Shown: one piece after another, positions 32,119-52,422 of the stretch
How positions within the stretch are numbered: the stretch's first letter is position 1
Layout of the letters: the number at the start of each line of letters is the position of its first letter
From: a virus
Taxonomy: Duplodnaviria; Caudoviricetes
Length of the DNA: 64,000 bases
Virus record (IMG/VR): IMGVR_UViG_3300011008_002712
Strand: one strand, 5' to 3'
Notes under the pieces: model-generated
Seen by the model: only the letters and a program-made list of their open reading frames with translations
Databases searched by the model: none
Told to the model about the DNA's origin: nothing
Program-made: the position numbers and the translations under genes

Positions 32119-35100
32119 TTATTCTGCCTCTACATACTGCATATCACTTGTCCATTTATTACTACACAAAATTTTATAAATTTCTTCTAACATCTTTTCA
32201 GGAGATATCTGTTCTCCATTATGGTCTTTTTTCATTATGCCAAAAATTTGTATATTCCCAATATTTTCTTTTTCTGCCTGCTTTTGGGCTTTTTGTTGTT
32301 CTATCAAATTATCTTGTTCTTGCTGAAGTTCTTCTTGCCTTTTTCTTATTTCTTCATCTAATTTTTCAACTTGATCACGATGAGCTTTTTGACGTTGTTC
32401 TTTTGATTTTTTATGTTCTTTTTGGTAAGTTATTCTATGTTGTTTTTTAATGCGATTCATTTTTTCTTCTAATGATTCTGCATTAGGATCTACAAACATG
32501 TCATTAATAAGATGTCCAGTAGCAATTGCTCTGCTATTTCCATTTCGAGATGCTATACGTTTCATCATAGCATCTGCGTTTTCTATTTGTTCTTTTACTG
32601 TTTGAAGTTTAGGAGGAGCTTGATGATTTAATGTTTGATTTGAAAAACTTCCTCCGCCTTTCATATAACTTAGAACTTTTGGAACATATTTTCTAGTTTC
32701 CTCATATGCTATTTTTGACAAATCTCCAGTTGAAAAATACTCAGCAACACCAGTTTGTTCTCCACCACCAGAATTGTATGCAGCTGCTATTGCACCAGCA
32801 TGACCATGCCAAGCTTTTCCGAGTTGTCCAAGATATTTAATTCCACCTTTAATATTATCTTGTTCATCATATGGATTTACTCCTAATCCAGCTGCAGTTG
32901 ATGGCATTAATTGCATTGCTCCAATTGCTCCAGCAGAACTATTGCTTCCCCATTCTAATCCATTCTCAGCTTTCATGATTGCAGCTGCCAAATACGGATC
33001 AACTCCATATTCATGAGAATATTTCATTACCCACTGATAATATTGTGGATTTTTTGTTTTTAATTCTTCTAATGCTGGTATGCCATTAGATGATTTAGAT
33101 GTTTCGCTTTGAGGTTCGGCTGAATAAAAAGAACCGCCAATTCTTACAGCCGGATCAATATCTGGTATATAAAAACCGACATTATGTGCAAAACCATAAG
33201 ATCCAGAACCTTGACCTGCATTTGCTAGAAGTTCTTGTTCAGTAAGATTTATTACACCTTTTGCTGGATCATGAACCCTTATCGTGCCATCAGCATTATA
33301 TCCAATATAAACAACGGCATGGCCAACTGAATATGATGGATGAACAGCGTCATATCCGCTATGATATGCAAGCATTGGTTTTCCAGATTTCAATGTCTTT
33401 CTTACAAGATTCACCGCTTCTTCATAAGAACTTGGATCATATTGAGAAGCATGTATTGCGCTATACCATTCTTCACTATCCCAATATCCTCTTCTTAAAA
33501 ATTCTCCTGGATCTATCATTTCGCCAGTATATATAGCTCTCATCATTGCGGCTGATGTAGCAAAACATCCTATAGCAGACATCGAACTACCACCATTTGG
33601 AGCCATATCACCCCATCTTTCATCATGCTGTAACCACATTGGAATATTTCCAGCATCTACAGAACTAGATTGTGATGGTGTTCCATATTTATCAATAATA
33701 TATTTTTGCAAATCTTTATAAACATCTGGTTGTTCTTTGATTACTTCAGCAATATGCTGCCATAAATTAACAGTATCATGTGTTGAAATTGTTTTTAATG
33801 CAAAATCTGCAACTTCTTCATCATCTACATTTAATGAATCAATATCAGATGAATCATCTATATATTGTCCTTTTTCAGACATAATTGCCAATGCAATCGC
33901 ATTATATCTACCATCTTGTTTTAACATTTCAACATAATTTCGTTTAATTCTTTGGGCAAAATCATCTTTTTTACCAGAAAGATTTCTCATTTGATCTCTT
34001 TCGTTTTCCCAATATTTTTTATCATCGCTTCCTGCATTAGGATGATAATAATAATTGCTCAAATGAGTATATAAACGATTATATTCGTGATTTTCATCAT
34101 AATTTGCTGCGTAATCTTGATAGAATTTTGCAAGAACAGAATTATCAGACATATATTTATGCAAATTACCTTGTCCAAATCCAAATTCAGACGTAATTTG
34201 TCGTCTTTTTAATGCAATATCTGACAACATTTGTCCAAGCGTAGCATGTTGTCTTTTATTTTGCTCAACTATTTCTTTTAATATATTTTTTTGAGTTTCA
34301 TTCAGTGCTGTTAAGTCTAATCCATTATCCTTTAAATATTTTCTTAGAATTTCGCCTTGATCTGTTTCTGATTGAAGAACTTTCATGATATCAATATCTC
34401 TAATTAAGGATGTTTCATTCATTGTTGCTACCCAATTTCTAGTAGCTTCATCCATTTTTTCTCCAATCCCCATTTTGTCTTTCAGGAAATTACCAAACTG
34501 ATTGCCAGCATATCCACCTATCATGCTTCCTGCTAAAGCTCCAATTCCTGGTATTGGTATCAATGCTTGTCCTATTGCTGCACCAATCGCCGCTCCTCCT
34601 AAGGATGAACCAGTTCCAATAGCAATTCGTTCTAATCGTTCTCCAGCACTTCTTTGATTACCAGATAATGCATCTGAAATTTCACCAGCACCTTCAAAAA
34701 ACAAAGTCATTCCCCACCAATTTTTAGCAAAATTTTTCATATTACTAAAAACAGCAGAACTAGTAGAATGAATAGATTGATAATTTTTTATTTCTTGAAG
34801 AATAGTAGACTTAGTTCCACCTAATATAGAACTGCCAACTTTCAAATAGTCTCTAAATGATTTTATTTTCGGTGTCTCGGTCCCAAATTTCTTCAAAAAT
34901 TGCGTTCTATATGCTTGTGGAATGTTTTTTGCTTCTAAATAGACATTTGCTATATTTCTTATACTTCTTGGGACTCTTCTTAAATTTTTTTGAAATCTCT
35001 TTAAAGAAAATTGGCTTGGATGAAGAATATTACTTGGCTTTATATATTTCCATGCATTTGCAAAATTATTTCTCAAATTAGTTTTGAATCTTTGAACATT

Positions 35101-38100
35101 TTTCATTTCTTTTGCTGTCATTTTTTGAGAAATATATGTAGGAGTCAATTGCTTGAATTGACCGTTCTTAAAAAACATCGATATGCCTTTTTTTGTGAGT
35201 AACAAACCAGCTATTCCAAGAGCTACTTTCGATGTTGTATCTAAAACGTTTTGTTCTTCTTCATCGTCTTCCATTTCAATAAAAGAACCATCAAAATTCA
35301 TTAACCTAATTTTTGCTTTGCCTGACGACATAAACGTAGAAAGAGATTCAAAACCATTTATATTTTTATTTAATTTTTCTTTATCATCGATCAGTTGCCT
35401 ATCTTTTGAAAAATAATCTATTGCTTGAGGAATTAATGACACACCCAAAGCTACTAGTCCAGCCGTTCCAGCAATTTTTCCAAATGTTTTCATGCTTCCC
35501 GGTAATGAATTTGGTATATTTTTTGGTGACGAAATACTAGGATTAGTTTTAAATGTTTTTTGCAATCCATTTAATATTGAATTTGTAATTAAACCGCTAG
35601 CTTTTCCTAACGCATATTTACCGAGTCCATATGTCATTCCAAGAGCAGTAATGCTTCCTCCAATTGTAAGCAATGGATTGTCTCCAAACATTTTTATAAA
35701 TCCTGCAGCATTTGGATCATTAGCTAAATCTCTTATCGTTTTTATGAAACTTGCAATTTTTCCAGGAAGTTTTTCTAACAAATTATCTATAAATGATACT
35801 GTTTTTCCTATGAGAGGAGAAAAATTCTCTTTCCATAATTCAGCTAGTCTCATTATATTAGCTTGTCTATCTGCCATAATTTGTTGTGTTATCGCAGTTT
35901 GTTGTCCCATATTTGATAAAGCTTTAGTAGCTTCAGAAATAGAATCGCTTAACTCTTTTCTTTGTTTAAATTTTTTATCATTTTTTCCAAGCAAAATCTC
36001 TTCTATTTCATCATATTTGCCCTCTTTTTTCATGGACATCATCATAGAAACTTCTTTTTCTGAATATCCATCTTCTTTCAGCAATCTACCAAAATATGCA
36101 AGAGACAAATTAGAGTCTGATGAACCAAAAAAATCATCATACCTTCCATATTTAGACATCATGGCTTTACCCATCATTTCTCTAAAATTTTCTACTGGTT
36201 TGCCATTCCTGTCCATAAAAATGCGGCCTCTTGTCATATTCGCATATAAATCATATCCCATTCCTGACAAGGCGCCAAAATATGCAACTTGTGATTTATT
36301 TTGTCCAAATCGTTGAGCTACTTGTGCAGATTTTATTACTAATCCATGAGCATCTTCTATTAACATTCCTCGTTTTACAAGATTAAACATCATTTCTGTA
36401 GCATCATCTGCTGACATTCCAAGTTCATAGCTTTTTACAGCTAAAGAACTAGCTTGATTCAAATATAGTTTAACTGGTATTCCAAGAATTTTTGCCTGCT
36501 CAATTATATTTGCAATTTTTGATGATGTTTGATTTACATCTTGTTGAGAATCTTTATAATAATATTTTATTAATTGATTAAAATCATTATTATCTAAATC
36601 ATTTGCTTCTTTCATAGCAAATAAATTATAAGTAAATTGACTTAAATCTTCTCTATTTTTCTCTGGATTAGAATTATATCTTCCTCCAATTTGTCTAGCC
36701 AAAGATTGATAAAATTGAGTTGGAGCAGCCAATTGAATTTGTCCAGCAGTTAAATGTTGAAAACGAGCTCCCATTCTATAGATACGATTGTAGTTATCAT
36801 TTTCAGCAATATTTGCTCCCAACATTTGGTCTGCTAATGCAGCTTGTTGCATTAATTTACCGCTAGATACATCTGCATTTTTTGTGTCACTTAGTAATTT
36901 GGAAAGTGAGATAATTCCGCCAAGACCCATCATAGCCAATGCAGAATTAAACATTCCCCACCAACCAGAAACACCACTCATAATCTTATCACCAAGAGAT
37001 TCTTTGTTCTCTTGTGACTTGGCTTTTGACATAGCTCTTTCTCTATCTACCAATTCAGCATTAATTGATTTTAATTGCTTTAAATATTCTGAATCTGAAT
37101 TAAGTATCTCTAAAGAATTAATCAAATTGACAGTATTAGCTATTTGCGTTTGAAGATCTTTTTGAATCTTATCATAATTTTCTTTTTCTTTCGTTGTCAT
37201 TTTTTTATATTCGTTATCAACTAATGACATCGATCTTCTTAAAACCATGCTACTATCATTAACAACTGTAGTAGAAATAGATTTAATAAACGCATCTGCA
37301 GATGAATGATTAGATATTTGACTTAGAAAACTTTGTTGATCTTGTATAAAACTAGGAGAAATCAATGATCTTACAAATGATTCATTTTCAATTTCTTGGT
37401 AGCCCTGAGAAACTAATCTATTTTGTTGTTGTACAAATGGAATTTTTCTTAATGTGTTTTCTTGTAAAATTTCTCTTGAATTTCTAACAGATGAAAATTC
37501 ATTAGTCATTGGTTTTACAAAACCAGCAAACATTTTCGCTAATTGAACAGATAAATTTTCATTAGATTTAAGATTTTCTTTCTTCGTTGAATCTTTTATT
37601 TCTGCTTGATGATCGTTTATTTTATCAGAAACTATCACATTAATAGTTTCAAGACTATTTTGTATAGTATTAAACGTATCATCTTGCAAATTATTTGGAT
37701 TAACATTTTCTGAAAGTTCGGCCGTCGTATTTCTTCTTATCAACAATTTGTCATGTTCATCTTGTATTTGATGCATTCTTTGATATGCTTTTAATGCATC
37801 TTCCATAGTGTTGATAGGAGATTTTGTTATATTATTAGATGTTTTTGCTGCTTGAAGCATTTGAGCATTAATATTATCAATCATATCAGCAGCTGAAACT
37901 TTTTCGTTTTTTACTATCTTATTTAAAGAATTTATTATAGAATTTATGTCATGAGATGTATTAGCAATAGAACTAGCGTGTTGTATGTCTAAGTTCTTGC
38001 TAATAAATTCTTTGCTCATTTCGTCATTAATTCTAATTAATTTTCTAGCTGAATCATTGACATCTTCTCCAATAACTCCAGCTATATGACTAGAAAAATC

Positions 38101-38586
38101 TCCATATTGTTGTCTTTGATCATTGACAAATTTTATGATAGCATCTGCTGAACTATCTATATTGTTTGCAGAATTTTGAATTTTCAATACAGAATTTTTT
38201 ATATTCTGTATTGAATGATGACAAGAATTTACTAAACTATTAACAAAATGATTGTTGCTAAAAACATTAATTGCTTCATATAATTCATTAATAGCTATAT
38301 CTGTTTTTTGATCGTTTTTTATTTGAGAATTTATTTTATAATTCGATATTTCTCTAACATGATCGATAAATCGACTAAACATAGTCAAATTAAAACCATT
38401 AGGAATTGAATATGAATTTATTCCTATATTTTTAACGTCTTTATGTGTTTCTTCTAATATTTCTATCAATCTATCAATCTGTTGTTTCGTTTCTGTATTT
38501 AAATCATAAGCATTCGCTACGCGAATAGCTTCTGAGCATAAATTATCTAATTGTCTATAATTTTGTTCTAATGTAGAAATATCCAC
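32119..38586 (-). CDS. Tape measure-like protein 3 with C39-like peptidase followed by lytic transglycosylase (SLT)
   Basis: Helical, with hydrophobic/Gly-rich segments; WLQHDERWG..IGCFATS..GHAVV..VHDP; PYLAAAIMKAENG..GAMQLMPSTA..AAYNSG. Confidence 0.82.
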   Translation of the reverse strand: MDISTLEQNYRQLDNLCSEAIRVANAYDLNTETKQQIDRLIEILEETHKDVKNIGINSYSIPNGFNLTMFSRFIDHVREISNYKINSQIKNDQKTDIAINELYEAINVFSNNHFVNSLVNSCHHSIQNIKNSVLKIQNSANNIDSSADAIIKFVNDQRQQYGDFSSHIAGVIGEDVNDSARKLIRINDEMSKEFISKNLDIQHASSIANTSHDINSIINSLNKIVKNEKVSAADMIDNINAQMLQAAKTSNNITKSPINTMEDALKAYQRMHQIQDEHDKLLIRRNTTAELSENVNPNNLQDDTFNTIQNSLETINVIVSDKINDHQAEIKDSTKKENLKSNENLSVQLAKMFAGFVKPMTNEFSSVRNSREILQENTLRKIPFVQQQNRLVSQGYQEIENESFVRSLISPSFIQDQQSFLSQISNHSSADAFIKSISTTVVNDSSMVLRRSMSLVDNEYKKMTTKEKENYDKIQKDLQTQIANTVNLINSLEILNSDSEYLKQLKSINAELVDRERAMSKAKSQENKESLGDKIMSGVSGWWGMFNSALAMMGLGGIISLSKLLSDTKNADVSSGKLMQQAALADQMLGANIAENDNYNRIYRMGARFQHLTAGQIQLAAPTQFYQSLARQIGGRYNSNPEKNREDLSQFTYNLFAMKEANDLDNNDFNQLIKYYYKDSQQDVNQTSSKIANIIEQAKILGIPVKLYLNQASSLAVKSYELGMSADDATEMMFNLVKRGMLIEDAHGLVIKSAQVAQRFGQNKSQVAYFGALSGMGYDLYANMTRGRIFMDRNGKPVENFREMMGKAMMSKYGRYDDFFGSSDSNLSLAYFGRLLKEDGYSEKEVSMMMSMKKEGKYDEIEEILLGKNDKKFKQRKELSDSISEATKALSNMGQQTAITQQIMADRQANIMRLAELWKENFSPLIGKTVSFIDNLLEKLPGKIASFIKTIRDLANDPNAAGFIKMFGDNPLLTIGGSITALGMTYGLGKYALGKASGLITNSILNGLQKTFKTNPSISSPKNIPNSLPGSMKTFGKIAGTAGLVALGVSLIPQAIDYFSKDRQLIDDKEKLNKNINGFESLSTFMSSGKAKIRLMNFDGSFIEMEDDEEEQNVLDTTSKVALGIAGLLLTKKGISMFFKNGQFKQLTPTYISQKMTAKEMKNVQRFKTNLRNNFANAWKYIKPSNILHPSQFSLKRFQKNLRRVPRSIRNIANVYLEAKNIPQAYRTQFLKKFGTETPKIKSFRDYLKVGSSILGGTKSTILQEIKNYQSIHSTSSAVFSNMKNFAKNWWGMTLFFEGAGEISDALSGNQRSAGERLERIAIGTGSSLGGAAIGAAIGQALIPIPGIGALAGSMIGGYAGNQFGNFLKDKMGIGEKMDEATRNWVATMNETSLIRDIDIMKVLQSETDQGEILRKYLKDNGLDLTALNETQKNILKEIVEQNKRQHATLGQMLSDIALKRRQITSEFGFGQGNLHKYMSDNSVLAKFYQDYAANYDENHEYNRLYTHLSNYYYHPNAGSDDKKYWENERDQMRNLSGKKDDFAQRIKRNYVEMLKQDGRYNAIALAIMSEKGQYIDDSSDIDSLNVDDEEVADFALKTISTHDTVNLWQHIAEVIKEQPDVYKDLQKYIIDKYGTPSQSSSVDAGNIPMWLQHDERWGDMAPNGGSSMSAIGCFATSAAMMRAIYTGEMIDPGEFLRRGYWDSEEWYSAIHASQYDPSSYEEAVNLVRKTLKSGKPMLAYHSGYDAVHPSYSVGHAVVYIGYNADGTIRVHDPAKGVINLTEQELLANAGQGSGSYGFAHNVGFYIPDIDPAVRIGGSFYSAEPQSETSKSSNGIPALEELKTKNPQYYQWVMKYSHEYGVDPYLAAAIMKAENGLEWGSNSSAGAIGAMQLMPSTAAGLGVNPYDEQDNIKGGIKYLGQLGKAWHGHAGAIAAAYNSGGGEQTGVAEYFSTGDLSKIAYEETRKYVPKVLSYMKGGGSFSNQTLNHQAPPKLQTVKEQIENADAMMKRIASRNGNSRAIATGHLINDMFVDPNAESLEEKMNRIKKQHRITYQKEHKKSKEQRQKAHRDQVEKLDEEIRKRQEELQQEQDNLIEQQKAQKQAEKENIGNIQIFGIMKKDHNGEQISPEKMLEEIYKILCSNKWTSDMQYVEAE

Positions 38587-38650
38587 GTATCAAATGCCTC
38601 CTTATGTTTCTATAAAATAAATACAGAAAAACGAAATGAATAGTACAAAA

Positions 38651-38674
38651 AATGGCTAGAATCATCTAGCCATT
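38651..38674 (-). terminator. Intrinsic terminator
   Basis: aatggctaga-atca-tctagccatt followed by a T-run on the minus strand. Confidence 0.75.
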
Positions 38675-38677
38675 CGA

Positions 38678-39046
38678 TTATTTCATTTTTTCAATTTCGT
38701 TTTCTTTCTTTGCGCGTTCGGCATCATATAAACGATACAATGTCTGAAGAATATATGGATTAACGTTATCAAATAATGTTTCTTTTTCATTTTCATCAAG
38801 AGATTGATCGTTAATAGAAACTAATGCTTCTTTCATAGTTTCTCGTTGCATTTTAAACATACGAGCAACCATATCATTTGCACTATCAGCAGAATTATCA
38901 AGAATATTTGAATGTTCCTTTGCATTTACAATTTTAAATGTCCACTTTTTATCAAATTTCATAATATCTATATTGCCGGAACCAAGAGATACAAGTTCGT
39001 TGATTATTTGATCCACAGCATTAATGCTATTTTTCATAACAGTCAT
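38678..39046 (-). CDS. Short tail assembly chaperone (paralog of the N-terminal domain of 52441..53382)
   Basis: KKWTFKIVNAKEH..MKEALVSIND..KETLFDNV vs KTWLFRTLSPKEH..MKKALLSING..KDVLFDNL; directly upstream of a tape-measure gene. Confidence 0.7.
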   Translation of the reverse strand: MTVMKNSINAVDQIINELVSLGSGNIDIMKFDKKWTFKIVNAKEHSNILDNSADSANDMVARMFKMQRETMKEALVSINDQSLDENEKETLFDNVNPYILQTLYRLYDAERAKKENEIEKMK

Positions 39047-39113: not shown

Positions 39114-42100
39114 TTAGTTTATAACACAATCAGCGGAAATTTCTACATTATTCATATATTTTTCTGCTATATTTTTAATTATTTCAATTGCTTCTTTAAA
39201 ATGCTTTTTAGGAATCAATTCTGGATTTAATTTAATGGCTTCTCTTATTTCATCAATTTTATCAAATTCCATATCTATTTGCGCACGTAAATCTTTTTTC
39301 AATTGTTTATCTGCATCTGTATCTTTTGTGTCATATATTCCATATTTTTCTCTTATTTTTTTTCTTTGTTCATCTAATGTAACAACCTTTTTATTGGGAT
39401 CTACATACATATCATCAACCAAAGCGCCAGAAGCTATTACTCCACGTCCTTTGCTTTGAGCCATTCTTTTCATTATTGCATCAGCATTTTCTATTTGTTC
39501 TTTCGCTGTTTTACTAGAAACAATTTGTTGCGTATTTAATTCTGGTGTTGCTCCACCAAATTGAGTAGCGCCTTTTTTAGTTTCATCTGGAATCCAATAA
39601 TCAAAATCATCTCTCCACAATTCAGAGTCTGAAATTGTTTCATTTACTCTACTTTGAGTATATGTATCATTTGGATCATGAACAATGACAGAACCATCTG
39701 AACGTAATCCAGCATACGTAATAAAATGTCCATTTTGTGTAAAATAACTTCCGGCAGATGCACCAACAACAACTGGAATATTATTTTTTAATGCTCTCAA
39801 TGCTTCTTCTTTTGTGCCTTTATGGAATCCAACTCCATATTGATATTTTGCCGCAGCAAATGCTTCATGAGACATTCCAAAACCTTCATGAAATCCTTGT
39901 TTTGTTGACCAATCAGCAACGTCTCTTGGCGTTATATATCTGCCAGTCATATTACTTAATGCCATAGCTAAAGCTGTTGGACCACAAGCAGATTGTCCCA
40001 TAGAATTTCCAGTACCATTCAATGTGTCATATGTTCCACCATCCCAATATTGACCATAAAGAGGTACTAATGTGCCATCAGCTAATTTAGTATATCTAAT
40101 TTGATTGCCTGATGGATCAACTTGATTTGCTAGTTCTACTGAAGAACTTTGTGATGATGGTAACGAATATGTTTGTTTTTCTCCACCAATAGAACTAAGA
40201 ATATTGTTAATATAATTTCTCGTTTCTTGAGGTAGAACAGACATATCATGTGTACTAGAAAAATTAGTTTTTGAAAGATTTCCTGATCCCCAGTTATAAG
40301 CAGCCAAAACAGAAAGAATATCACCGTTATATTGCTGAATATTTTGAGCTAAGTATTTTGTACCGCCCATAACATTCTGTTCCATATCCATTCTATCAAC
40401 ACCAAGATATTCAGCGGTTTCTGGCATAAGCTGCATTAAACCATAAGCACCAGCACTCGATCCTCGATCATGCACAAAGCCAGATTCATTTTTTATGACA
40501 GCAGCAACAAGTCTTGGATCTACATTATACATATTAGAGTACTTTATAATCAACTTATAGATTTCTGGATGTTCATTTTTTGCAATTTCTAAAGCATCTC
40601 CACTTAAAGCGTTAGTCTCAAGACCAGCCAAATTTCCAGAAGAATTAAAATTTTTAAGTTTTTCTTCTTCCTCTTTCCATCTTTCTTGCCCTTTTACAAC
40701 CATATATTCATGTTCAGCCAGCAAAACATTTTGTTCTGCATAATATTTTGCCATAGCTTTTAATTCATCGGCCGTAACTCCAGATAAATCATTTGATTTT
40801 TTTTCTTTGCCATGCCAACTATTCCATAATGACTTAATATATTGATTTAAGTTGTCTTCTTCTGCTTGAGCATGATACACATTAGCTTGTTTGAACCAAT
40901 AACTATTTTCATCATTCGCGTTTTCTTGAGAATGGTAATAATAATTAGATATAAACTCATATTTGTTTCTTGTGGCTTCATTATATCTTTCATCTTGCGA
41001 CATTCTTTGAAACCAGCTTCCTTTTACATTATCATCATTATCCCATTCTTTTTTCAACTGCTCAGATATTTGTTTTTTTATAAGATTAGAATCGCCCGTT
41101 GGATTTTTAGATAAATCTTTCGAAGCTTGCATAATTGCAAATTGATTATCGCCATATATCTTTAAATATTCTTGATATTTTTTAAACCAATATCCTTTTT
41201 GATCATCATTTAATTTTTGCCATTCTATATTATGATTTAATAAACTCATTGCAACTATGCTTTCAAATTCTCTATTTGATAAACCAAGTTTCATAGCTGC
41301 GTCAGCAAATGATTTAGTTTGAGCAAATGTTGATTCTTTAGCAAGAACAACTTCAAATTTTCTATTATTTATTCCAGTGTATTTATCAATAAAATTTTTT
41401 CCTTCATTTTCATCAATATTTTTTGTTTCAGACGATTTATTTTGAGCAATTATATTTTGTTGTTCTAATAAATAGTTATACTGATCGTGATGTAAATCAT
41501 ATTGTTGAGGAGTTTCACTAGCTTCTGCTTGACTAAACATAGAATTATTCATAAATGGGATATTGATTGCTGCAATTCCTAAAAATCCACCAATATTTCT
41601 TGCCATATTAGTAGCTGCAGCTGGATTTCTTATGCCAACTCTAGAAGCAACAGCGGAAGTTATTCCTCCCAATAGAGTAGAACCAACTAATTCTCCAACA
41701 GTCATTTTTGCAGTATTGACAGCTACATCTTTCATGGAAAAATCTTCTCCAGTAGCAATAGATTCAGCAAGTTCAAAACCAGCGCCCCATATAGCATTTC
41801 TTCCCAATGTTTTTGCAGCGCCGCCCCAAGATGTCCCACCAAGACGAGCTTGTTGCATAGCTTGTTCTTTTGCAATTCTTTGTTGTTCTAATTGCTGCAT
41901 ATATTGTCGTCTGTTTTGATAAATTAATCTTCTTTGTGCTGATGACATTTTTGCTCCTGGCTGTGGAAGTGGCGGCAAACCAGAATGTGTTTGTCTATTT
42001 GTAAAAAATGATTTTATTTTTTGCCATCTTGTAAGAGAAGAATTAGACATAGTATTCATGTTTGTTGGAATCTTTCCTCTTTTTAAGAATGATAATCCAA

Positions 42101-45100
42101 CAGTTGCCAGTACAGCTGTCGTCAGCAATGTCACAAACATTGAATCTTCTTCTGTTTTTGGCTTTTTAACCATTTTTACTTTTGCATCACCAGATGCTAA
42201 AAATGACAAAAAATCTACGACGCTATCTTTATCACTTCTTTTAGAATAATCATTTATAGCATCTCCTAATGTTATTGTCCCAGCTAAAATAGAAGCAATG
42301 ATAGCAGCTTTTTTTGTAGAACTAATACCTTCAAATGCATTTACTATACCAGCAATTAATCCTCTTTCAGAAGCTTTTGGAGCAGATGTTATCAATCTAC
42401 TCGGAAGAGAAATTAAAAGACGAAGCAATTTTCCTCCTCCAAGCATTGCGAGTTTTCCAGTAGTATATAGTCCAATAGATGATAAAATAGGATGCTGCTT
42501 AGCAAAATCAATCATGCTTCTCCCAATTTTAGTATCTCCAAACCAGCTAAATAATTGTGAAAATTTATCAACAAATAATTTAACTTCTTTTTCTATCCAT
42601 TGAACAAAACTTCTAATTGAACCAGCAAAAGCATTATGTAATATAAATGCAATGTTATTGATATGAGACGCATAAGTGCTTTCCATTTTATGTGTTTCTG
42701 CCAATTGATTTGCAGATTTTTCAATAGAATTTGTATAATCTCTTGTGACTTCAGATGTAGTAACATTTTTATTTTGTGCAATACCTTTTAATTTATCTTT
42801 TAATTCATCTAATCTTCCCTCTTGAGCCATATATAAAGACATAGAAATATCTTTTTCTGAGAATCCATTTTCTTTCAGTCCTTTTGCAAAAGTGAATTGT
42901 CCAATAGAAGTATCTATCCCACCATATAAATTGATTTGTGCCCACATTCTATCAAACATTACATCATAATATTTATCATTAACTTTTCCAAAACGATCAG
43001 TAGAAATTAATCCATCTTTAAATGCGGAAAATACATTACCTTCTCCAGAGAACATATCGAAAAATATATTTTTACTCCAATTGGATTGTTTTCCCATATT
43101 CCATCCAGATACAGCTTTACCAACATTTTGTGATAAAGATAACGCATCTTCTATTAACATATTTCTATCTTTCAATAAAGACGTTATAATATTATGTGCT
43201 CTAACTTCAGAAAAACCAAGATTTCTATATGTTGATGCTAATGGTGTAACTATCTTTGAAAAAGATTCAACAGAAACATTATTTTGTATTGCTGTAATTT
43301 CCATTGATTTAAAATGTTTGACTGTATCTTCTGCTGACATTCCAAGGTCTTTATAAAAAACCTTTATATTCGTCAACAATGTTGAATCAGACATTCCATA
43401 TATTTCTTTCATTTGAGTAAATTCTTTAGCAAAATACTGCATATCTTTGGCAGCTTGTTCTGGATTAGAATTATATTGGCCACCAACATAATTAAACAAA
43501 GAAACATATGTACGTGTTATTTCTGGAAAATCTATCATTCCAAAAGATTTTTCATATAAATCTTGAGCGCTATAAAAAGATAAATCATTTTCTCTATCTA
43601 AATTGATATTCGCTCCATGAGCTATATCTGTCTTTGCTATTGAAGCGCGCAATTCACCTTGTTGATTCATTTTATCGATAGATTTCGCTATTGCTTTAAA
43701 CGGATTAAGAAAATCCAATATTGTCGATCCACCGAACATCATAGCTGTAGAACCAGCAAAAAATAGCAATGCATTTTTACTAGAATTAAAAACATCTTTT
43801 ATAGCTTTTGAAAAAGAAACGCTAATTTCTTTTACATTTTTCATTTTTTCTCTAGAATTATACAATTCTTTTCGTTCATTTTTAAATTTCTTTAAAATTG
43901 AAGATTCTGGATCAATTTTTTCTAATGCATCAATTAGAATATTATAATTTTCAACTAATTGTTCTACATTTTTTGTATATTCTTCAACAACAACTACATC
44001 AGATTTAGATAAATCAAAAAACATCCCTTTGGACATGTTTAATGAATTAATCATAGAAATTTGTTCTTTAGCAACTTGAGATAAAATATTACCAACATTA
44101 TTTAATGATTGCTCAGCTAAATTATCATCTTTTGTATTCAAAGATTTATGATATACATCTAGCCCATCTTTCAGAGTTTTTTGGGCTTGATGCATCATAT
44201 GTTGATAATTTCTATTTTTTTGATAAAATAATTCTCTATTGCCAAAACCAAATAAATGCTGCCTTGCAATATCAGCTATAGAATTATTAGAAAACCTGTC
44301 ATTTTGCAATTCTTGTACAATTCTATCAGTTGAATCTGGTAACAAAGCCATTTTTTTAATTTGATCTGGAATTTCATTAACTAATGGCTGGTCAAAAAAT
44401 TTCTGTTCTCCAAAACTGATTATATTACCATTATTATCTTTTAACGTTTCATATAATTTACTCTTTATTTGTTTATTCTGTAAATCTAAATCGTTTGATA
44501 TATAATCTTGTTCTAATTCATCATTCGTATTTATAGAATCTATCAACCTAACAGTTTTTTCTATATTTTCATATGATAATTCAAATATTCTAGATGCATT
44601 ATCATTAAATACGTTCAATTGATCTTGCAAAACATTTGGAAGCTGATCATAATTTGCATAGTCTTTAATATAACTTAATAAATTTTTGTAATTATATGCT
44701 AATGTTTCATCGATTGCGTTAATTGTATTATTAAAATTGCTTCTAAGTTGAGGATTATTTATATTTCGTAACGAATGATTAATTTGACTTTTTACATTAT
44801 ATACTAAATCGTGAAGTCCTTTTAAATAATCTACTAAATCTATTTCATTTCTCTGATCACTATTAAATAATGAAACTTTTTGTTGTATTTTTTTTATTCC
44901 ATCATTAATTGATTCAACTGAATTTAATACTTTTCTTGTTGGAGAAAGCAAATCTTCGTCAAGGATTACTTTTGGATTAGCTGTATCTTTTTTTATTTTT
45001 TCTAAATCACTTTTATATGCATTTAATGATTCTATTAATCCATTAACATCGAATTTATTTTTGTCACGAGGATGAGATGTAACATTATAAGAACCAAATC

Positions 45101-45611
45101 TCGGCCCCAAATGCAATTTTTTATTATTTTCAATATTATCAAGTTTTATTAAATTCGCATTAATAGAACTAATAGTATCTGACAAAGTTCTCTTTATTGA
45201 CAATATATTAGATTGATTAACAAGAGAATTGATCAATAAATCTATTTCATTATCATCAATAACAGAAATATTTCTTAGTTTTAGCTCTTGATTTTTTCTT
45301 TTTGCTTTATCAAATGATTGTCTTATAATATCAAAGGTTTTTGTAATTTCTTGAGAGATTTTTGTTTTTGTTTCATCTGAAGTTATATTTACAACTAACT
45401 TAGGAATATCAGAAAGAGATGCATCTGCATCTTGCAGTGCATTAACCATAATTTCATATAATTCTTTTACTTCTTCAGCAGAAACATCTTGAAGTTTTTG
45501 AAGCAATTCGATTTGCGCTTTTTCGCTTTGATCTTTGAATTCTGTTATTTTATTTTCTAATTTTCGTTTTGCTTCGTTTATTTCTTTCTGATAATCATTT
45601 TTTGATTTCAC
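39114..45611 (-). CDS. Tape measure-like protein 2 with SLT followed by C39-like peptidase
   Basis: PRLVAAVIKNESG..GLMQLMPETA..AAYNWG; SACGPTALAM..GHFIT..VHDP; core shared with the other two. Confidence 0.82.
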   Translation of the reverse strand: MKSKNDYQKEINEAKRKLENKITEFKDQSEKAQIELLQKLQDVSAEEVKELYEIMVNALQDADASLSDIPKLVVNITSDETKTKISQEITKTFDIIRQSFDKAKRKNQELKLRNISVIDDNEIDLLINSLVNQSNILSIKRTLSDTISSINANLIKLDNIENNKKLHLGPRFGSYNVTSHPRDKNKFDVNGLIESLNAYKSDLEKIKKDTANPKVILDEDLLSPTRKVLNSVESINDGIKKIQQKVSLFNSDQRNEIDLVDYLKGLHDLVYNVKSQINHSLRNINNPQLRSNFNNTINAIDETLAYNYKNLLSYIKDYANYDQLPNVLQDQLNVFNDNASRIFELSYENIEKTVRLIDSINTNDELEQDYISNDLDLQNKQIKSKLYETLKDNNGNIISFGEQKFFDQPLVNEIPDQIKKMALLPDSTDRIVQELQNDRFSNNSIADIARQHLFGFGNRELFYQKNRNYQHMMHQAQKTLKDGLDVYHKSLNTKDDNLAEQSLNNVGNILSQVAKEQISMINSLNMSKGMFFDLSKSDVVVVEEYTKNVEQLVENYNILIDALEKIDPESSILKKFKNERKELYNSREKMKNVKEISVSFSKAIKDVFNSSKNALLFFAGSTAMMFGGSTILDFLNPFKAIAKSIDKMNQQGELRASIAKTDIAHGANINLDRENDLSFYSAQDLYEKSFGMIDFPEITRTYVSLFNYVGGQYNSNPEQAAKDMQYFAKEFTQMKEIYGMSDSTLLTNIKVFYKDLGMSAEDTVKHFKSMEITAIQNNVSVESFSKIVTPLASTYRNLGFSEVRAHNIITSLLKDRNMLIEDALSLSQNVGKAVSGWNMGKQSNWSKNIFFDMFSGEGNVFSAFKDGLISTDRFGKVNDKYYDVMFDRMWAQINLYGGIDTSIGQFTFAKGLKENGFSEKDISMSLYMAQEGRLDELKDKLKGIAQNKNVTTSEVTRDYTNSIEKSANQLAETHKMESTYASHINNIAFILHNAFAGSIRSFVQWIEKEVKLFVDKFSQLFSWFGDTKIGRSMIDFAKQHPILSSIGLYTTGKLAMLGGGKLLRLLISLPSRLITSAPKASERGLIAGIVNAFEGISSTKKAAIIASILAGTITLGDAINDYSKRSDKDSVVDFLSFLASGDAKVKMVKKPKTEEDSMFVTLLTTAVLATVGLSFLKRGKIPTNMNTMSNSSLTRWQKIKSFFTNRQTHSGLPPLPQPGAKMSSAQRRLIYQNRRQYMQQLEQQRIAKEQAMQQARLGGTSWGGAAKTLGRNAIWGAGFELAESIATGEDFSMKDVAVNTAKMTVGELVGSTLLGGITSAVASRVGIRNPAAATNMARNIGGFLGIAAINIPFMNNSMFSQAEASETPQQYDLHHDQYNYLLEQQNIIAQNKSSETKNIDENEGKNFIDKYTGINNRKFEVVLAKESTFAQTKSFADAAMKLGLSNREFESIVAMSLLNHNIEWQKLNDDQKGYWFKKYQEYLKIYGDNQFAIMQASKDLSKNPTGDSNLIKKQISEQLKKEWDNDDNVKGSWFQRMSQDERYNEATRNKYEFISNYYYHSQENANDENSYWFKQANVYHAQAEEDNLNQYIKSLWNSWHGKEKKSNDLSGVTADELKAMAKYYAEQNVLLAEHEYMVVKGQERWKEEEEKLKNFNSSGNLAGLETNALSGDALEIAKNEHPEIYKLIIKYSNMYNVDPRLVAAVIKNESGFVHDRGSSAGAYGLMQLMPETAEYLGVDRMDMEQNVMGGTKYLAQNIQQYNGDILSVLAAYNWGSGNLSKTNFSSTHDMSVLPQETRNYINNILSSIGGEKQTYSLPSSQSSSVELANQVDPSGNQIRYTKLADGTLVPLYGQYWDGGTYDTLNGTGNSMGQSACGPTALAMALSNMTGRYITPRDVADWSTKQGFHEGFGMSHEAFAAAKYQYGVGFHKGTKEEALRALKNNIPVVVGASAGSYFTQNGHFITYAGLRSDGSVIVHDPNDTYTQSRVNETISDSELWRDDFDYWIPDETKKGATQFGGATPELNTQQIVSSKTAKEQIENADAIMKRMAQSKGRGVIASGALVDDMYVDPNKKVVTLDEQRKKIREKYGIYDTKDTDADKQLKKDLRAQIDMEFDKIDEIREAIKLNPELIPKKHFKEAIEIIKNIAEKYMNNVEISADCVIN

Positions 45612-45648: not shown

Positions 45649-45677
45649 AAAAGAGAGTAATTGATTAACTCTCTTTT
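45649..45677 (-). terminator. Intrinsic terminator overlapping the TMP1 stop
   Basis: aaaagagagt...actctctttt inverted repeat, then T-rich on the minus strand. Confidence 0.65.
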
Positions 45678-48600
45678 AAGGATTTACTGCCGCATGATGT
45701 GACATTCTTACATATTGAGCTTGCTCGCCCTCTTTCAAACGAGTTGTTTCATCTATGCTATGACCCATTCTTGTCATTGCTTGAATAACCCACTGTTTTG
45801 TGACACCGCCACCAATTACATTCATAGCAATACTTACACTATGCTTTTCATCTAAATCATTTTGAAAATCTTCTTCTAATCTTTCATTTGTTGGTGTTTC
45901 ATATCGTCTAACACTTTCTTGCAGCCATGCATCACTATCTAGAACAGCTTTGTCAGAATTTTCTAAATCGGATATTTTGTCTTGATTATATGTTATTTTA
46001 CCCCAAGATTCCTTATGATCTTTTCTGAATTTATTTTCCATATTTTCTATCATCTTGGCGCCGCTTGTATCAAATTGCTCAAATTGTTTTTTATCTTTGT
46101 TCCAAGAAAAATATCCTTGTGTATTAAATCCATATAAACTTGATTCTTGTGCTCCAGATGATAAATTTAAACGATTTTTTACGCCTGTTGGAGTCATATA
46201 TACATCTCTATCTCTAAAAGAAGCTGTTGTTCCGTCTAATATTAAACGACCAGTTGCAAATTTATCTCTATAGTTAGTCATTGCCCCAACTTCTTTGGAC
46301 ATCCTATCTGTTATGCTTTTTTTCGCAGCATCTACAGTGCCTGCCAAATCAGTATTAAAATCATCATTTGTATTTTTATTACTTGAAGCTCCGGATAAAG
46401 CATCTACGTCTGGAGCTGATGCACCTGGTGTACCAAAACCTCCAAAATTTGTTCCAGCATTAGGACCTTCCCATTGTTCTCCAGCAGCAGATATATCAAA
46501 ATGGTCGCCTTCCCAATTCATTCCAAGTCCAAGACTATTGCCATATTTTATAAACTCTTGACCAAGCGAACCCATCGTTCCATCAGCATTTACAAGATAA
46601 CCTCCTTGCAAACCTTCTGGCCCATACCAATCGTTAACATCGACCTTCCATCCAGCGTCATGACCAGTTGGAGAACCATTACTTGAATGATCACCATCTG
46701 TTCCAGCTGTAATGACAAGTTTATGTCCGGTTTTATCAGCAAACCATTTTCCTAATGCATCCATAGCACTAAGAGTTTGCTGCTGCATGCCTTCAGTTGA
46801 TACGCTACTACGTTGTCTTACCCAATATTTATTTTCGCCAGAACCAGGAATAGATAAATCAAAATTATTTGCCTGCATTTGAGAAACATTTTTTGCTGTT
46901 CTGTTTATTCCATCAGAACGATCTTGATTGTCGCTTTCAGCATTATTCCCTTCTTCTTTTAAAATTGATTGTGGATATTTTTCGCTTGCATGCAAACCAG
47001 CGAATTCTGTTGTTGATTCAACCAAAGAATTAATATCTGATTTAGAACCATCAAAATACATTGGGCTAAAATAGTCATCAATAAATTGACTTTGTTTTGT
47101 ACCAAATTCTAATCTTTGTTTATACTCTCCCATGTCAACAGTAGACGACATGTCATTAACGAATTTTTCTTTTTCAGCATTTGTAAATCTATCAGTTGTA
47201 CCAAATGAAGCTATTCTCTTCCACATATTGTCTATTTGAGAATCTGTTACTTGATTACCCTGACTGTCACTAACAAAAGTTGAACGCATCCAATCGGTAA
47301 ATTTTTCTTTACCACTTGATAATTCTTTATAATCGCCTTTTTTTATTTTTTCCCAATCTATTCCGCTACTATTCAGTCCAAAACTTAATGCTTCTTTAGC
47401 ATATTGTTTTGCTGTTCTATCTTGATTTCCAAATCCTTCCATACTTTCATCTGTAGACTGCAAAGCTACTCGATAATATCGTAAATTATCTTTAATGTTA
47501 GTGGCGTCTTTAAATCCTTCTTGCAATGCTTTCAATCTTCTTTGAGGATCATCATATGTTTCTTCCCACTCTTTTTTATGCATTTGTGCAGTATGTTCAG
47601 CAGAAAGATATGCAGCAGAAATATCACTATAATTTAACTGTTTCAACTGATTAAACAAATCATCCATATATCTTTGCTGATCTTTCGTTAGATTCTCCAT
47701 TTTAACGCCATGAGCTTCTAAATTATCTTTTGCCGCGCGGGCACGATTATCATTACTATTTATCAAACTGTTAGTATCTTTTGTATATTTTCCAGAAGCC
47801 CATTTAGACGCATCAAGATATTTATCTCCCATCATTCTGCCGTCTTCGTCAGATATTTTAAATATTTTTTTAAGCCGATCTCCTGCAAGTCCTCCAAGAT
47901 ATCCACCAGCAGCAGCTCCTACAAATGTGCCAACTGGTCCAACAAGACTTCCAACGGCTCCACCTACTAACATTCCAGCTGTTTGAGATGCAGCAGATAT
48001 GCCAAATCTTCCAATTCTTTCTTTTGTTGTAAACTTATCCGGATTTTCATAATAATCCATTAATTCTGTAGCTCCAGCAGATAAAACTCCAAGTGCTGCA
48101 GTTGTTTTTCCACTTGCTTTTAAAAAGTCTTTTGCATTTGCAAGTCTTCCAGAAGATGCATATTGCCGAGCATTCGTTTCAGCTTGAACAGCAGATGAAC
48201 TACTTGTTGTCTGAGGATTATATCTTTGTCCATTAGAAGTAGGTATTACTGGAGGGATATTAGCATTTGACATTCGTCTATTAGCATATAATCCAGCTAA
48301 GCCAACAGCTCCAGTTCCAAGCAACATTGCTGTTGCATAACCTGGCATTCCGTTATGTTCAGACAATAATCTCGCTTCATCTCTTTGCCTTATAGCTTCA
48401 AAATCTTGTTCTGAAGCTATAGCAACATTCGATTCAATTTTATCATCTTGATCTTTTATTTTTTGATGAGTTTCATTATATGTTTTTTGATATTCATCTA
48501 TTATTTGTTGTTCTTCTGCGCTTATTTGTCCGTCTAAAATTTCATTTGTTTGTTCATCATTTGCTATTTGGTTATCTGTATTTTGATCTTGACGTGTTGC

Positions 48601-51600
48601 TTGTTCTTGAATAAAACTTGTTTGTGCACTTTTTTCAGCTTTTTTATTATTATTTGATTCATTTGGAACTAGCTGTGCTTTAAAATCTCCAGATGTAAAT
48701 ATATTATAAAGTCCAGTAAAAAGTCCAGAAACAGTATCTGATATATCGGAAAAAGTTTGTGTTTTGGAAAAAGCAATGCCTCCTCCTAAAACAGCTCCAG
48801 CTCCAAGAAGTTTTCCCCATCCAGGTATTGAATTAACAACTTTTGCTCCAGTGCTAAGTTTAGATGGATCTTTAAATATGCTATACTTTGTCAATTCTCC
48901 TAAAATTTTAACACCTTTTACTCCCGCACCAGCGGCTGCTAATCCTCCCAATCCAGCTAATGCAAGTCCTCCTGGAGACATATCTCCTAAAAAGTTACCA
49001 ATTGCTTGCCCAGTACTAGAAGAAGAAAATTTCTTTAATTCTTTTATTAGTAATTCTACAGAAGAAACAAATCCAGTTAGTAGATCGTCAAATCCTTTTC
49101 TTAAGTTACTAAGAGGTTCTTGCAAATCACTATGAATTACTTCGCCAAGATGTTTTTCAGCCAATGCTACAGAAGTTTGTGCTTTAGTTATTTCAGAAAC
49201 TTGATTTCCAGAAGCTTCAATCTTTTGTCTAGCTTCTGACATAGCATTTTTAAGTCCTTCTTCACTGTTTTCTTTCTCTTCATCAGCTTCTTTCAATAAA
49301 TCCTCAAATAGCTGCATATCATTATTAAGATAAGCATCTCCAAGCATTGAAACCGATCTTTGAGAATACCCACGTTTAGATAAAGTGTCCATTAATAACG
49401 AAGCACCAAGATAAGAACCTGGACCTCCTCCAATGCCACCCATCATTCCAGCTTCAAAAAACAGTCTTTGCGCCATAGTGGAATAATATTCTTGATTTAT
49501 ATTTCCATCGCTTCTTACTGGCATCATTCCAGAGACTATATTACCAAAAATATCTCCACCTTGACCAGCCATAATGCCATAAAATCCAGATGCACCCCAA
49601 TCATTAAATCCCATGTTTCTTCCAGCATGAGCAGTATCTGTTAATAGTTGTGAAGCATCTTCTATACGCATTCCTCTTCCAGTCAAATCACGTATAAATT
49701 GTTGAATTTTTTCTCCTTCAACACCATATTCACGTAAACTTGACATCATGCTAGTCATATTGTTTATATATTGACTAACTGGGATACCTGCAGCTTGAGC
49801 TGAACGAGCCATTTGGACTAACGCATAACTTGCTTGGTCTGCCGAGTGTCCCAAATCTTTATAATATGTTTTCATGAAAGATGAAACATCATTTTCATTC
49901 AAACCATACATCTGAGCTATACCAAAAGTGTTGGTAGTTATTTTGTCCATGTCTGCACGAGACTGACTTGGATCCATGCCATAATGTCCACCAACATTTC
50001 TTCTCATTGCTATAGCATAATTTTTGACTTGATCCCAACCAATTTGTCCTTGTGACAATTTATAGTATTCATCTGCCATAGTATCAACGTAAAAATTATT
50101 TCTACTTTCGTTAATACTATTACCGATAGCAAAATCACTTTTTGCTAATTCATATCTATAAATTCCAGAACGTTTTTCTGCTTCAAAGCCTCCGCCGACA
50201 ATTTGTAAAAGATTTCCAAGAGTAGGCGCTAGCATTCCTAATCCCATTAAGCCCATGCCGCCAACAAACAATCCATGTGCTTTTTTAACGCCAGACACGG
50301 CTCCGCTCAAAACATCTTTTACATCAAAAGAATCATCTTTTATGTCTTTAATACTATTTGCAGTAGATGATAATTCGTTATTTATGTTTTTTAGCGTTTG
50401 AAGAGATTCATGTTGCGGATCGATAGCCTCAATAGCAGAAATTGCATCTCGCAAACTAGCAGCAGCATTATCAGATGATTTAAGAAATGAATCTAATGTT
50501 CCTTTATCATTTTCATTTAATAATTTATACTGCCCACGATGCAAATTAATATTTTTTAATCCTTCTAAATGAGCTTTAGCATTAGCTTCAACAGAATCAG
50601 CCAATGAACGTAATGTTTTTTTAGTATGTTCGCTATCTCCAGCAGCTCTAAATGCATCTAATTGTGTTTGTACTTTGGATAATTGCTCACCAGCTACAAA
50701 ATTAGTTCTTTGAGCATTTCTAACATTTCCCTTAAATAATTCTCTATTATTTAAAAAATTTCCTGGCAAATATCTATATAGCCCTGGAATTGAAACTCGA
50801 CTCATTTCTAATTCTGCAGATGTCATATGACGCATAACATTTGCTAAATCATTTTGTGAAGCATTAACTCCGCCAATAGATGTTTTGGTAAACATGTTAG
50901 ATATATCAAGATTAACTTGATTATATTCTTCTGTCCCGGCTATACTTGCATTTTTTATTTTTTGCTCATTTTGTTGATTTGCTTTTTCTATTAATCCAGA
51001 AAGTTCTTTTCTAAAATTATCTAATGTTAAATTTACAATTTCATTAAATTTTACGTTTTCATTTTTAATAGAAGTAACTATTCTAGATATTTGTTCGAAA
51101 TTTCCGCTTTCACTCAACAATTTAGCAAATGTCAACGATATATTTGATTGAGATTCATTTATTGATTCTGCAAATTTTTGAATCTCTGTCAATGTTGACA
51201 TATAAATATCTAAATTATTATCTTTATCGTCAATATTATTTAATTCATTAATAATTTGAATTAATTGCGAAGAAGCAAATGACAAACCTTTAACATTATC
51301 TGGATCTAATAATTCATCTATTGATTGAACGTCATGTGATTGAACAGCTGATGATAATTGATTAATGACATCGCTTACATTTGCGGCTACATATCCACCA
51401 ACATTTTTAAAAAAATTTTTTGCTATTTCATCTACATTTTCAAATGTTTTTGCTGATTCTTGGTATTGTTCTCTCAACAAACGAATCATATCAGCATTTT
51501 GCTGAGCCATTTGTTGCATATTCTGTGCATCAGATGCAATAGCTTCTGCACTATCTGCAGATGTTTGAGCTATGTTTTCTGCTGCCTGACCAAAAGTTTG

Positions 51601-52422
51601 TCCAGATCGAGCAACTCGTTCCATAGCATCAGATGCTATATTCATTACATCAACTAATTGATTAATAATACTAACATCAAAAAATTGAGTAGAAATGTTT
51701 CCTAGCGTACTTATTTTATTTACGACATCTACTACTTTTGTTTTGACAGTATCAATTTGAGATGTATCTATATTTTGTTCTAATAAATGATTTATTTGAT
51801 CACTTAAAACACCAGTAATGTCAAAACTTTGAATAGCATTTTTTAATTCGTTTTGAGCATTTTGAAATTCTCTACTTATAGCATTCACATCAATAAGATG
51901 AACTTCTGCGTTATTCATCTTATCATATACTTCTCTTAATTGGTTTGTTTTTTCTCTAATAATTTGAAAATTATTAGCTAGATCACTGCTAACCTGTCCT
52001 CCTGCAGCTTTGATCTCTGCGATTTTTTGAGCTATATTATCAATTCCATCTGAAGCTTCGCGTGAAATAGCAGTGAAAGACTCATGAAGTCTACGTATCT
52101 TATCTTGAGAATCTGTAATGTCTATAGAAAGAGAATTGCCTAAAGAATCTTTTTGATTAGGAGTAACTATTCTTCTAGTATTATCTTCTGTAACAACTCT
52201 TCCAGTATCTCCAGAACCAGGTGTAACAAAACCAGTATTCTCAATACGACCAATATTAAGAGCTTCACGTAATGAACTATTCAACTTATTGGTATCTGTT
52301 ATTAAATCTCTATTCAATTTCTCTTGTTCTCGAGACATTGTATATTGATTCATATTGTCGCCAAAAATATTATTATAAGTTACCTTTTTATTATCATCTA
52401 AATTATCAAATCCTGTAGCCAC
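45676..52422 (-). CDS. Tape measure-like protein 1 with M15-like zinc peptidase domain
   Basis: Follows tube and chaperone genes; helical with Gly-rich hydrophobic segments; VITAG..GHDAGWKVD (H-x6-D)...GDHFDI. Confidence 0.82.
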   Translation of the reverse strand: MATGFDNLDDNKKVTYNNIFGDNMNQYTMSREQEKLNRDLITDTNKLNSSLREALNIGRIENTGFVTPGSGDTGRVVTEDNTRRIVTPNQKDSLGNSLSIDITDSQDKIRRLHESFTAISREASDGIDNIAQKIAEIKAAGGQVSSDLANNFQIIREKTNQLREVYDKMNNAEVHLIDVNAISREFQNAQNELKNAIQSFDITGVLSDQINHLLEQNIDTSQIDTVKTKVVDVVNKISTLGNISTQFFDVSIINQLVDVMNIASDAMERVARSGQTFGQAAENIAQTSADSAEAIASDAQNMQQMAQQNADMIRLLREQYQESAKTFENVDEIAKNFFKNVGGYVAANVSDVINQLSSAVQSHDVQSIDELLDPDNVKGLSFASSQLIQIINELNNIDDKDNNLDIYMSTLTEIQKFAESINESQSNISLTFAKLLSESGNFEQISRIVTSIKNENVKFNEIVNLTLDNFRKELSGLIEKANQQNEQKIKNASIAGTEEYNQVNLDISNMFTKTSIGGVNASQNDLANVMRHMTSAELEMSRVSIPGLYRYLPGNFLNNRELFKGNVRNAQRTNFVAGEQLSKVQTQLDAFRAAGDSEHTKKTLRSLADSVEANAKAHLEGLKNINLHRGQYKLLNENDKGTLDSFLKSSDNAAASLRDAISAIEAIDPQHESLQTLKNINNELSSTANSIKDIKDDSFDVKDVLSGAVSGVKKAHGLFVGGMGLMGLGMLAPTLGNLLQIVGGGFEAEKRSGIYRYELAKSDFAIGNSINESRNNFYVDTMADEYYKLSQGQIGWDQVKNYAIAMRRNVGGHYGMDPSQSRADMDKITTNTFGIAQMYGLNENDVSSFMKTYYKDLGHSADQASYALVQMARSAQAAGIPVSQYINNMTSMMSSLREYGVEGEKIQQFIRDLTGRGMRIEDASQLLTDTAHAGRNMGFNDWGASGFYGIMAGQGGDIFGNIVSGMMPVRSDGNINQEYYSTMAQRLFFEAGMMGGIGGGPGSYLGASLLMDTLSKRGYSQRSVSMLGDAYLNNDMQLFEDLLKEADEEKENSEEGLKNAMSEARQKIEASGNQVSEITKAQTSVALAEKHLGEVIHSDLQEPLSNLRKGFDDLLTGFVSSVELLIKELKKFSSSSTGQAIGNFLGDMSPGGLALAGLGGLAAAGAGVKGVKILGELTKYSIFKDPSKLSTGAKVVNSIPGWGKLLGAGAVLGGGIAFSKTQTFSDISDTVSGLFTGLYNIFTSGDFKAQLVPNESNNNKKAEKSAQTSFIQEQATRQDQNTDNQIANDEQTNEILDGQISAEEQQIIDEYQKTYNETHQKIKDQDDKIESNVAIASEQDFEAIRQRDEARLLSEHNGMPGYATAMLLGTGAVGLAGLYANRRMSNANIPPVIPTSNGQRYNPQTTSSSSAVQAETNARQYASSGRLANAKDFLKASGKTTAALGVLSAGATELMDYYENPDKFTTKERIGRFGISAASQTAGMLVGGAVGSLVGPVGTFVGAAAGGYLGGLAGDRLKKIFKISDEDGRMMGDKYLDASKWASGKYTKDTNSLINSNDNRARAAKDNLEAHGVKMENLTKDQQRYMDDLFNQLKQLNYSDISAAYLSAEHTAQMHKKEWEETYDDPQRRLKALQEGFKDATNIKDNLRYYRVALQSTDESMEGFGNQDRTAKQYAKEALSFGLNSSGIDWEKIKKGDYKELSSGKEKFTDWMRSTFVSDSQGNQVTDSQIDNMWKRIASFGTTDRFTNAEKEKFVNDMSSTVDMGEYKQRLEFGTKQSQFIDDYFSPMYFDGSKSDINSLVESTTEFAGLHASEKYPQSILKEEGNNAESDNQDRSDGINRTAKNVSQMQANNFDLSIPGSGENKYWVRQRSSVSTEGMQQQTLSAMDALGKWFADKTGHKLVITAGTDGDHSSNGSPTGHDAGWKVDVNDWYGPEGLQGGYLVNADGTMGSLGQEFIKYGNSLGLGMNWEGDHFDISAAGEQWEGPNAGTNFGGFGTPGASAPDVDALSGASSNKNTNDDFNTDLAGTVDAAKKSITDRMSKEVGAMTNYRDKFATGRLILDGTTASFRDRDVYMTPTGVKNRLNLSSGAQESSLYGFNTQGYFSWNKDKKQFEQFDTSGAKMIENMENKFRKDHKESWGKITYNQDKISDLENSDKAVLDSDAWLQESVRRYETPTNERLEEDFQNDLDEKHSVSIAMNVIGGGVTKQWVIQAMTRMGHSIDETTRLKEGEQAQYVRMSHHAAVNP

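Follow-up and report, generated by a model that had tools for sequence, protein, structure and literature searches.

The window analysed here is a stretch of 64,000 nucleotides from the virus record IMGVR_UViG_3300011008_002712 (Duplodnaviria; Caudoviricetes) and belongs to the 416,024-base, 99%-complete genome G000. Three large genes on its minus strand encode probable tape-measure proteins (TMPs). The TMP-A gene (45676..52422) encodes a product of 2248 amino acids (aa), the TMP-B gene (39114..45611) one of 2165 aa and the TMP-C gene (32119..38586) one of 2155 aa. The products share a core, encoded at 49066-50445 in A, 42570-43937 in B and 35764-37125 in C, and each has its own type of C-terminus, which is strand-helix in A, helix-strand in B and strand-helix-strand in C. 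An earlier sequence-only reading of the window had reported three intact open reading frames of these sizes in the TMP slot. They are indeed present, all on the minus strand, and the shared motifs named in that reading lie at residues 810, 709 and 633 of A, B and C, then at 853, 752 and 676, and then at 918, 818 and 741, respectively. The pairwise alignment it had proposed as a check showed the three products to be paralogs with 21-24% identity over 550-1140 aa (BLASTP, E 1e-31 to 1e-48). A core-profile search found exactly three copies of the TMP core in the whole genome. Between B and C lies a small gene (38678..39046, minus strand) for a stand-alone G-type tail assembly chaperone of 122 aa, which the sequence-only reading had overlooked. 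A terminator-like hairpin (38650-38675) between this small G gene and the TMP-C gene might allow separate transcription or tuning of C. At the DNA level, the TMP genes show only short matches of 71-83%, and no long DNA repeat joining them was found in the genome. The A/B and B/small G junctions are spanned by contigs of about 97-98% identity from another public run. The low protein identity, the lack of long repeats, the separate clades of the copies and the independent contigs rule out a recent duplication or an echo of the assembly. A few DNA joints in the other-run contigs that skip a gene were treated as noise, their sides being only 20-26 bases long.

The sequence-only reading had proposed that the conservation of the triplet in related jumbo phages be checked. 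The gene order GT chaperone, A, B, small G, C, initiator is complete in ten distinct genomes, namely the window genome and nine relatives (G001, G003, G004, G005, G007, G011, L075, L081 and L084), and is partly visible in five further loci. G008 was left out of this count because its lengths are identical to those of G005. A, B and C are each monophyletic (support 100/99, 99/99 and 95/94, respectively) and jointly form one clade. According to these gene trees, A, B and C are old copies that arose by duplication and are orthologous across the lineage. Of the 11 complete loci in the lineage, 10 retain all three. Each is under purifying selection, with ratios of nonsynonymous to synonymous substitution rates of 0.17-0.22 between G003 and G004 and of about 0.5 between the more distant G005 and G007.

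A, B and C each match gp183 of Bacillus phage G (E 1e-23 to 1e-27). A tblastn comparison of gp183 with the shared core gave an E of 6e-23, and gp183 is also the top structural match. It is the single TMP of phage G, has 2893 aa for a tail of 450 nm and has been detected in the virions (PMC8570332). The position of the triplet between chaperone and tube initiator matches the order gp181/182-gp183-gp184. The core of A was modelled as all helical, with a predicted local distance difference test score (pLDDT) of 78, and its best matches were gp183 and TP901-type TMPs of PF10145, with many TMPs among the matches and template modelling scores of 0.54-0.56. The helical assignment of the B and C cores was carried over from the A model through the alignment. 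Matches to the sequence profile TIGR01760 were weak (2 of 33 cores), and PDB sequence searches gave nothing significant. In all copies, conserved anchors span the protein from the core almost to the C-terminus. The homology to gp183, the gene position and the modelled fold of the A core support the assignment of A, B and C as TMPs, as the sequence-only reading had it, with a core that is predicted to fold like a TMP core. The likeness to the TMPs of the TP901/PF10145 PhageMin_Tail family (diffocin, T4 gp29, lambda gpH) includes an all-helical core predicted to adopt their fold, the slot between chaperone and initiator, and weakly hydrophobic, glycine-rich segments. The difference is that the TMP structures consulted are homo-oligomers of one gene product.

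The tail module of the window is collinear with gp178-gp189 of phage G and comprises genes for a sheath, two tubes, chaperone, initiator, hub and wedge. Its products share 41-45% (sheath), 41-54% (tubes) and 32% (wedge) identity with those of phage G. By this syntenic homology, the phage is a phage G-like (Donellivirus-related) jumbo myophage. Like Bacillus phage G (Donellivirus gee), it has the homologous core, the same gene order, two tube genes and C-terminal peptidoglycan hydrolases. Phage G differs in having one TMP, which bears both a glucosaminidase and an M23 domain, and a frameshifted G/GT chaperone (PMC8570332), whereas the triplet phage has three TMPs with the cargo distributed among them and separate G and GT genes.

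All the tail genes around the triplet lie on the minus strand. The sheath gene (59062..61215), 41-45% identical to phage G gp178, is followed by those for tail tube 1 (58305..58985, gp179-like) and tail tube 2 (57553..58284, gp180-like). On the other side of the triplet lie the genes for a probable tube initiator (30361..32106), which is gp184-like and has a weak match to PF23980, a probable baseplate hub (26544..30344), which is gp185-like and is assigned from its position, and a baseplate J-like wedge protein (21648..23582). The genome has one copy each of the sheath, initiator, hub, gp25-like and J genes, and a single sheath is present in each of three triplet genomes with 98-100% completeness. 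The single sheath and single baseplate set seen in the window by the sequence-only reading hold for the whole genome. No switching repeats of high identity were found flanking the TMP genes. Alternative tails would be expected to come with a second initiator, hub or sheath or with a DNA switch, and neither was found; three TMP genes are present for one sheath and one hub. The two tube genes are ancestral, since they are common to the single-TMP phage G, in which both are expressed. They were rejected as a mark of two tails.

The three proteins carry different enzyme domains. TMP-B bears an SLT lytic transglycosylase (40263-40553) followed by a C39-like peptidase (39669-40067). TMP-C has the reverse order, with a C39-like peptidase (33262-33645; weak match, E 2e-4) preceding the SLT domain (32755-33024). 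The expected catalytic motifs are visible in both. TMP-A bears a probable M15/hedgehog-fold zinc peptidase (46468-46842), a weak match with a visible His/Asp/His ligand motif at about residues 1912-1973 and an atlas lead of 0.89; its hedgehog-fold matches reach only E ~1 and come from a model with a pLDDT of 50. A domain resembling it sits on B in G003 and G004, and A of the close relative L075 carries an M23 domain, differing from A of the window. Compared across genomes, the cargo of A is usually a peptidase (M23, NlpC/P60), and that of B and C consists of glycan hydrolases (SLT, GH73, tail lysozyme). Judged from the domain assignments, the enzyme cargo differs from copy to copy and swaps quickly. 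The C-terminal motifs are paralog-specific and are conserved within each of A, B and C. In phage G, glycan- and peptide-cutting cargo is borne on one chain (PMC8570332).

A separate clade (100/100) carries two tandem TMPs, with lengths of 2424/2293, 3676/3422, 4266/3948 and 4423/4393 aa. Three of the second-copy lengths were taken from gene calls or from near-identical database proteins, and the L076 copy is frameshifted in its assembly. The lengths of the two copies correlate with r 0.99, and core identity between them is only 29-43%. For three pairs, the gene trees of the two copies mirror each other, which implies parallel changes of several hundred residues in both since the duplication. 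The 2424/2293 copies are each other's sisters, which implies a further duplication or homogenisation. On the evidence of the trees, this sister lineage duplicated its TMP independently of the triplet lineage. The nine relatives with a single TMP have proteins of 1911-4534 aa. In the longest of these (L073:4495-18099, genome G016), the extra length of the 4534-aa protein lies N-terminal of the core, whereas the doublets of about 4400 aa have grown after the core.

The lengths of the paralogs co-evolve, strongly for B and C and for the doublets and moderately for A. In phylogenetic contrasts of total length, the correlation is r 0.71 (p 0.02) for A-B, 0.80 (p 0.006) for B-C and 0.59 (p 0.07) for A-C; across analyses, A-B ranges from 0.71 to 0.82. 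The TMP lengths do not correlate with those of either flanking gene (initiator or GT), so a general inflation of protein length is not supported. The middle segment, from core to cargo, correlates between B and C with r 0.95 (p 0.0002; phylogenetic, eight genomes with clear anchors), and with r 0.84 once a short outlier is dropped. Indels in the two halves of this segment offset each other (r -0.75, p 0.03), with examples such as -33/+35 and -68/+65. Gene conversion is not favoured as the origin of the B-C match, because the middle segments of B and C from the same genome are usually less alike than orthologs from different genomes; the exceptions are G003, G011 (marginal), L081 and L084. The similar lengths emphasised by the sequence-only reading are thus tightly matched for B and C, while A is loosely coupled and the spread within one triplet genome is 3-17%.

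The chaperone genes also distinguish the multi-TMP loci. The GT-type tail assembly chaperone gene (52441..53382, minus strand) encodes the G domain and the T domain in a single frame, which makes a frameshift unnecessary. The product of the small G gene shares 32% identity with the N-terminal part of GT and ends where phage G gp181 ends. In all nine single-TMP loci, a slippery AAAAAAC stands directly before the G stop and T lies in the -1 frame. This lambda-type arrangement was not found in any of the 16 multi-TMP loci examined: all of them encode G and T in the same frame, and 15 have a separate G gene. The only heptamer near the G/T junction in the GT gene of the window (codon 135) is outside the -1 slip phase. 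The products correspond to those of lambda, which makes G and GT by a programmed -1 frameshift, but in both multi-TMP lineages each has a gene of its own. The two G domains group as sisters (100/99) in the triplet lineage, which implies that the frameshift was replaced separately from the doublet lineage. The GT genes of the doublet lineage encode 290-684 aa with N-terminal extensions. Two separate losses of the frameshift alongside TMP multiplication are suggestive of a causal link but no proof of one, and separate chaperone genes may be what permits the co-loading of different chains.

We propose that A, B and C form one heteromeric tape measure inside one contractile tail, a reading that we consider probable, with modest confidence. 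TMPs assemble as trimers or hexamers, and three C-termini are held on a trimeric hub (PMC10996793, PMC12929629). After an old tandem duplication of a gp183-like gene, the three chains would be co-loaded into one tube, either in an ABC trimer or in a hexamer of composition 2+2+2; a hexamer would also fit a 3+3 composition in the doublets. Their complementary, paralog-specific C-termini would anchor them on one hub. B and C would run in close register, and A would be a looser third strand that is longer at its N-terminus. At injection, each chain would deliver its own wall-cutting domains, which would give glycan and peptide cutters in every virion without lengthening the ruler. With the frameshift lost, free chaperone would come from the separate G gene. 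By scaling to phage G, the tail is predicted to measure 335-350 nm. Of the two options in the sequence-only reading, this heteromer is favoured by the length co-variation, the conserved paralog-specific C-termini, the retention of three copies and the single sheath, hub and initiator. Virion incorporation and co-assembly are what we infer, and with them the stoichiometry and the enzyme activities. The second option, alternative tail types, is disfavoured by the single sheath, initiator and hub and by the lack of switching repeats. A stronger version, in which the heteromer is obligate, its strands are swappable hydrolase carriers and the system evolved at least twice (in triplets and doublets), with separate chaperones replacing the frameshift each time, is put forward tentatively, as somewhat less likely to be right than wrong.

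Several observations weigh against the heteromer. The triplet phages are known from their genes alone. L079, a member of the triplet lineage, carries two copies only and lacks an A-type C-terminus, so three copies are not obligatory; its region L079:10001-22111 encodes A-like cores with B-type and C-type ends and may represent an intermediate, a loss or a gene conversion. The addition of the divergent L081 and L084 lowers the support of the B and C clades to 82/95 and 80/96. The spread of lengths within a genome reaches 13-17% in G011, L081 and L084, the middle segment of A is weakly coupled (r 0.53 to B, 0.33 to C; not significant), and the N-terminal part of A exceeds that of C by up to about 200 aa. 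The length tests comprise 6-9 contrasts with anchors from an alignment at 20% identity, and a misplaced middle anchor would mimic the compensation of indels. Selection for one optimal length could also couple separate homomeric tails. When the three C-terminal fragments were modelled as a complex, the median was 0.07; this result was counted neither for nor against the heteromer.

The full length of every protein and its own set of enzymes would also be expected if the paralogs were interchangeable rulers, one per virion as a homo-oligomer or in a random mix, so that the population would vary in wall specificity. B and C of the window each hold a glycan and a peptide cutter, the cargo swaps fast (M23 on A of L075, another domain on A of the window), and L079 manages with two copies. 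We regard such interchangeable use as unlikely, since it would predict neither the offsetting indels nor the parallel length change of the doublets, the hub and initiator are single and no switching repeats flank the genes, and the C-termini are paralog-specific and conserved, with three copies kept in 10 of 11 complete loci. The loose coupling and longer N-terminus of A, together with the B-type and C-type ends of L079, are compatible with a division of roles, in which B and C (or one copy) act as the ruler and A (or two copies) is ejected as lytic or channel-forming cargo. Non-equivalent positions do exist, as the T4 TMP appears hexameric, yet three C-termini bind the hub. This division seems quite improbable to us, because A retains the full architecture and is under purifying selection, its total length still co-varies with that of B, and it occupies the canonical TMP position directly after the GT gene. 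An end-to-end use of the chains in a tail of about 1 micrometre would accommodate the summed length of 6568 aa, and single TMPs of the family reach 4534 aa. Matched lengths would not be predicted by it and every copy retains the terminal motif; if the chains of a MarsHill-type analogue were used in series, each residue would account for 0.059 nm of tail, compared with 0.118 nm for a single chain and 0.156 nm in phage G. It is very hard to credit.

The arrangement is real and conserved, and a set in which each protein is a TMP breaks the rule of one gene. The textbook tape measure of long tails is the homo-oligomeric product of a single gene. No TMP triplet, TMP length co-evolution or heteromeric TMP was found in the literature, most subscription journals lying outside the coverage. 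The sequence-only reading had suggested an undescribed system, an idea that has a partial precedent: two potential TMPs have already been noted in Staphylococcus jumbo phages (bioRxiv 10.1101/2020.12.14.422802; PMC10638138). In MarsHill, Madawaska, Machias and UFV_DC4, an adjacent 'tape measure protein' and 'tail lysin' have matched lengths of 1962 and 1990 aa and different lytic domains, and the two genes are paralogous to each other. They differ from the triplet in being two copies, annotated as a pair with no proposal of co-assembly in the accessible text, and no homology of this doublet to the triplet core was detectable. MarsHill has one tail length of 233 +/- 4 nm despite two TMP-like genes (bioRxiv 10.1101/2020.12.14.422802), which by analogy would speak for a heteromer. 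The cultured Staphylococcus doublet is unrelated to the uncultured triplet phages but is a usable proxy for them. If the heteromer holds, the symmetry of hub and tube does not preclude an asymmetric ruler, the enzyme cargo can grow without a longer tail, and each strand is labelled, so that trimer versus hexamer and the length-setting chain become directly testable. Such a ruler would resemble the VgrG paralogs of type VI secretion systems, trimer subunits with different C-terminal effector domains, which differ in forming a spike rather than a ruler and are unrelated in sequence. The two independent losses of the G/GT frameshift with TMP multiplication bear on the question of why this frameshift is so conserved.

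Further observations concern the neighbouring regions and the genome. The interval between the tube and chaperone genes (53463-57458) contains two homing-endonuclease-like genes and a transposase/TnpB-like gene; several relatives have different insertions at this site, and phage G has none. The hub gene (26544-30344) and the adjacent 25654-26526 are fused in relatives, as a 1517-aa open reading frame in G001 and similarly in G004, G005 and G007. The genes at 9536-13198 and 15634-17613 are paralogs of each other (28% over 323 aa) and both resemble phage G gp211, and 1921-3780 encodes a superfamily 2 helicase with an intein-like insert. In G001, the tail module is split and inverted, with the sheath at about 339 kb (+) and the TMP block at 213-233 kb (-), and the triplet block is intact. 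In the doublet genome G017 (L069:3797-4939), the sheath gene is fragmented and lies on the opposite strand. A search of genome G000 for TerD did not find it, and the initiator had no match among bacterial genome contigs. Close relatives of G000 are present in sheep gut runs. The genome has a G+C content of 29.74%, encodes a reverse transcriptase, NrdD and PnuC, and carries twelve tRNA genes at C1:248376-256453, including those for Ile with the anticodons TAT and AAT.

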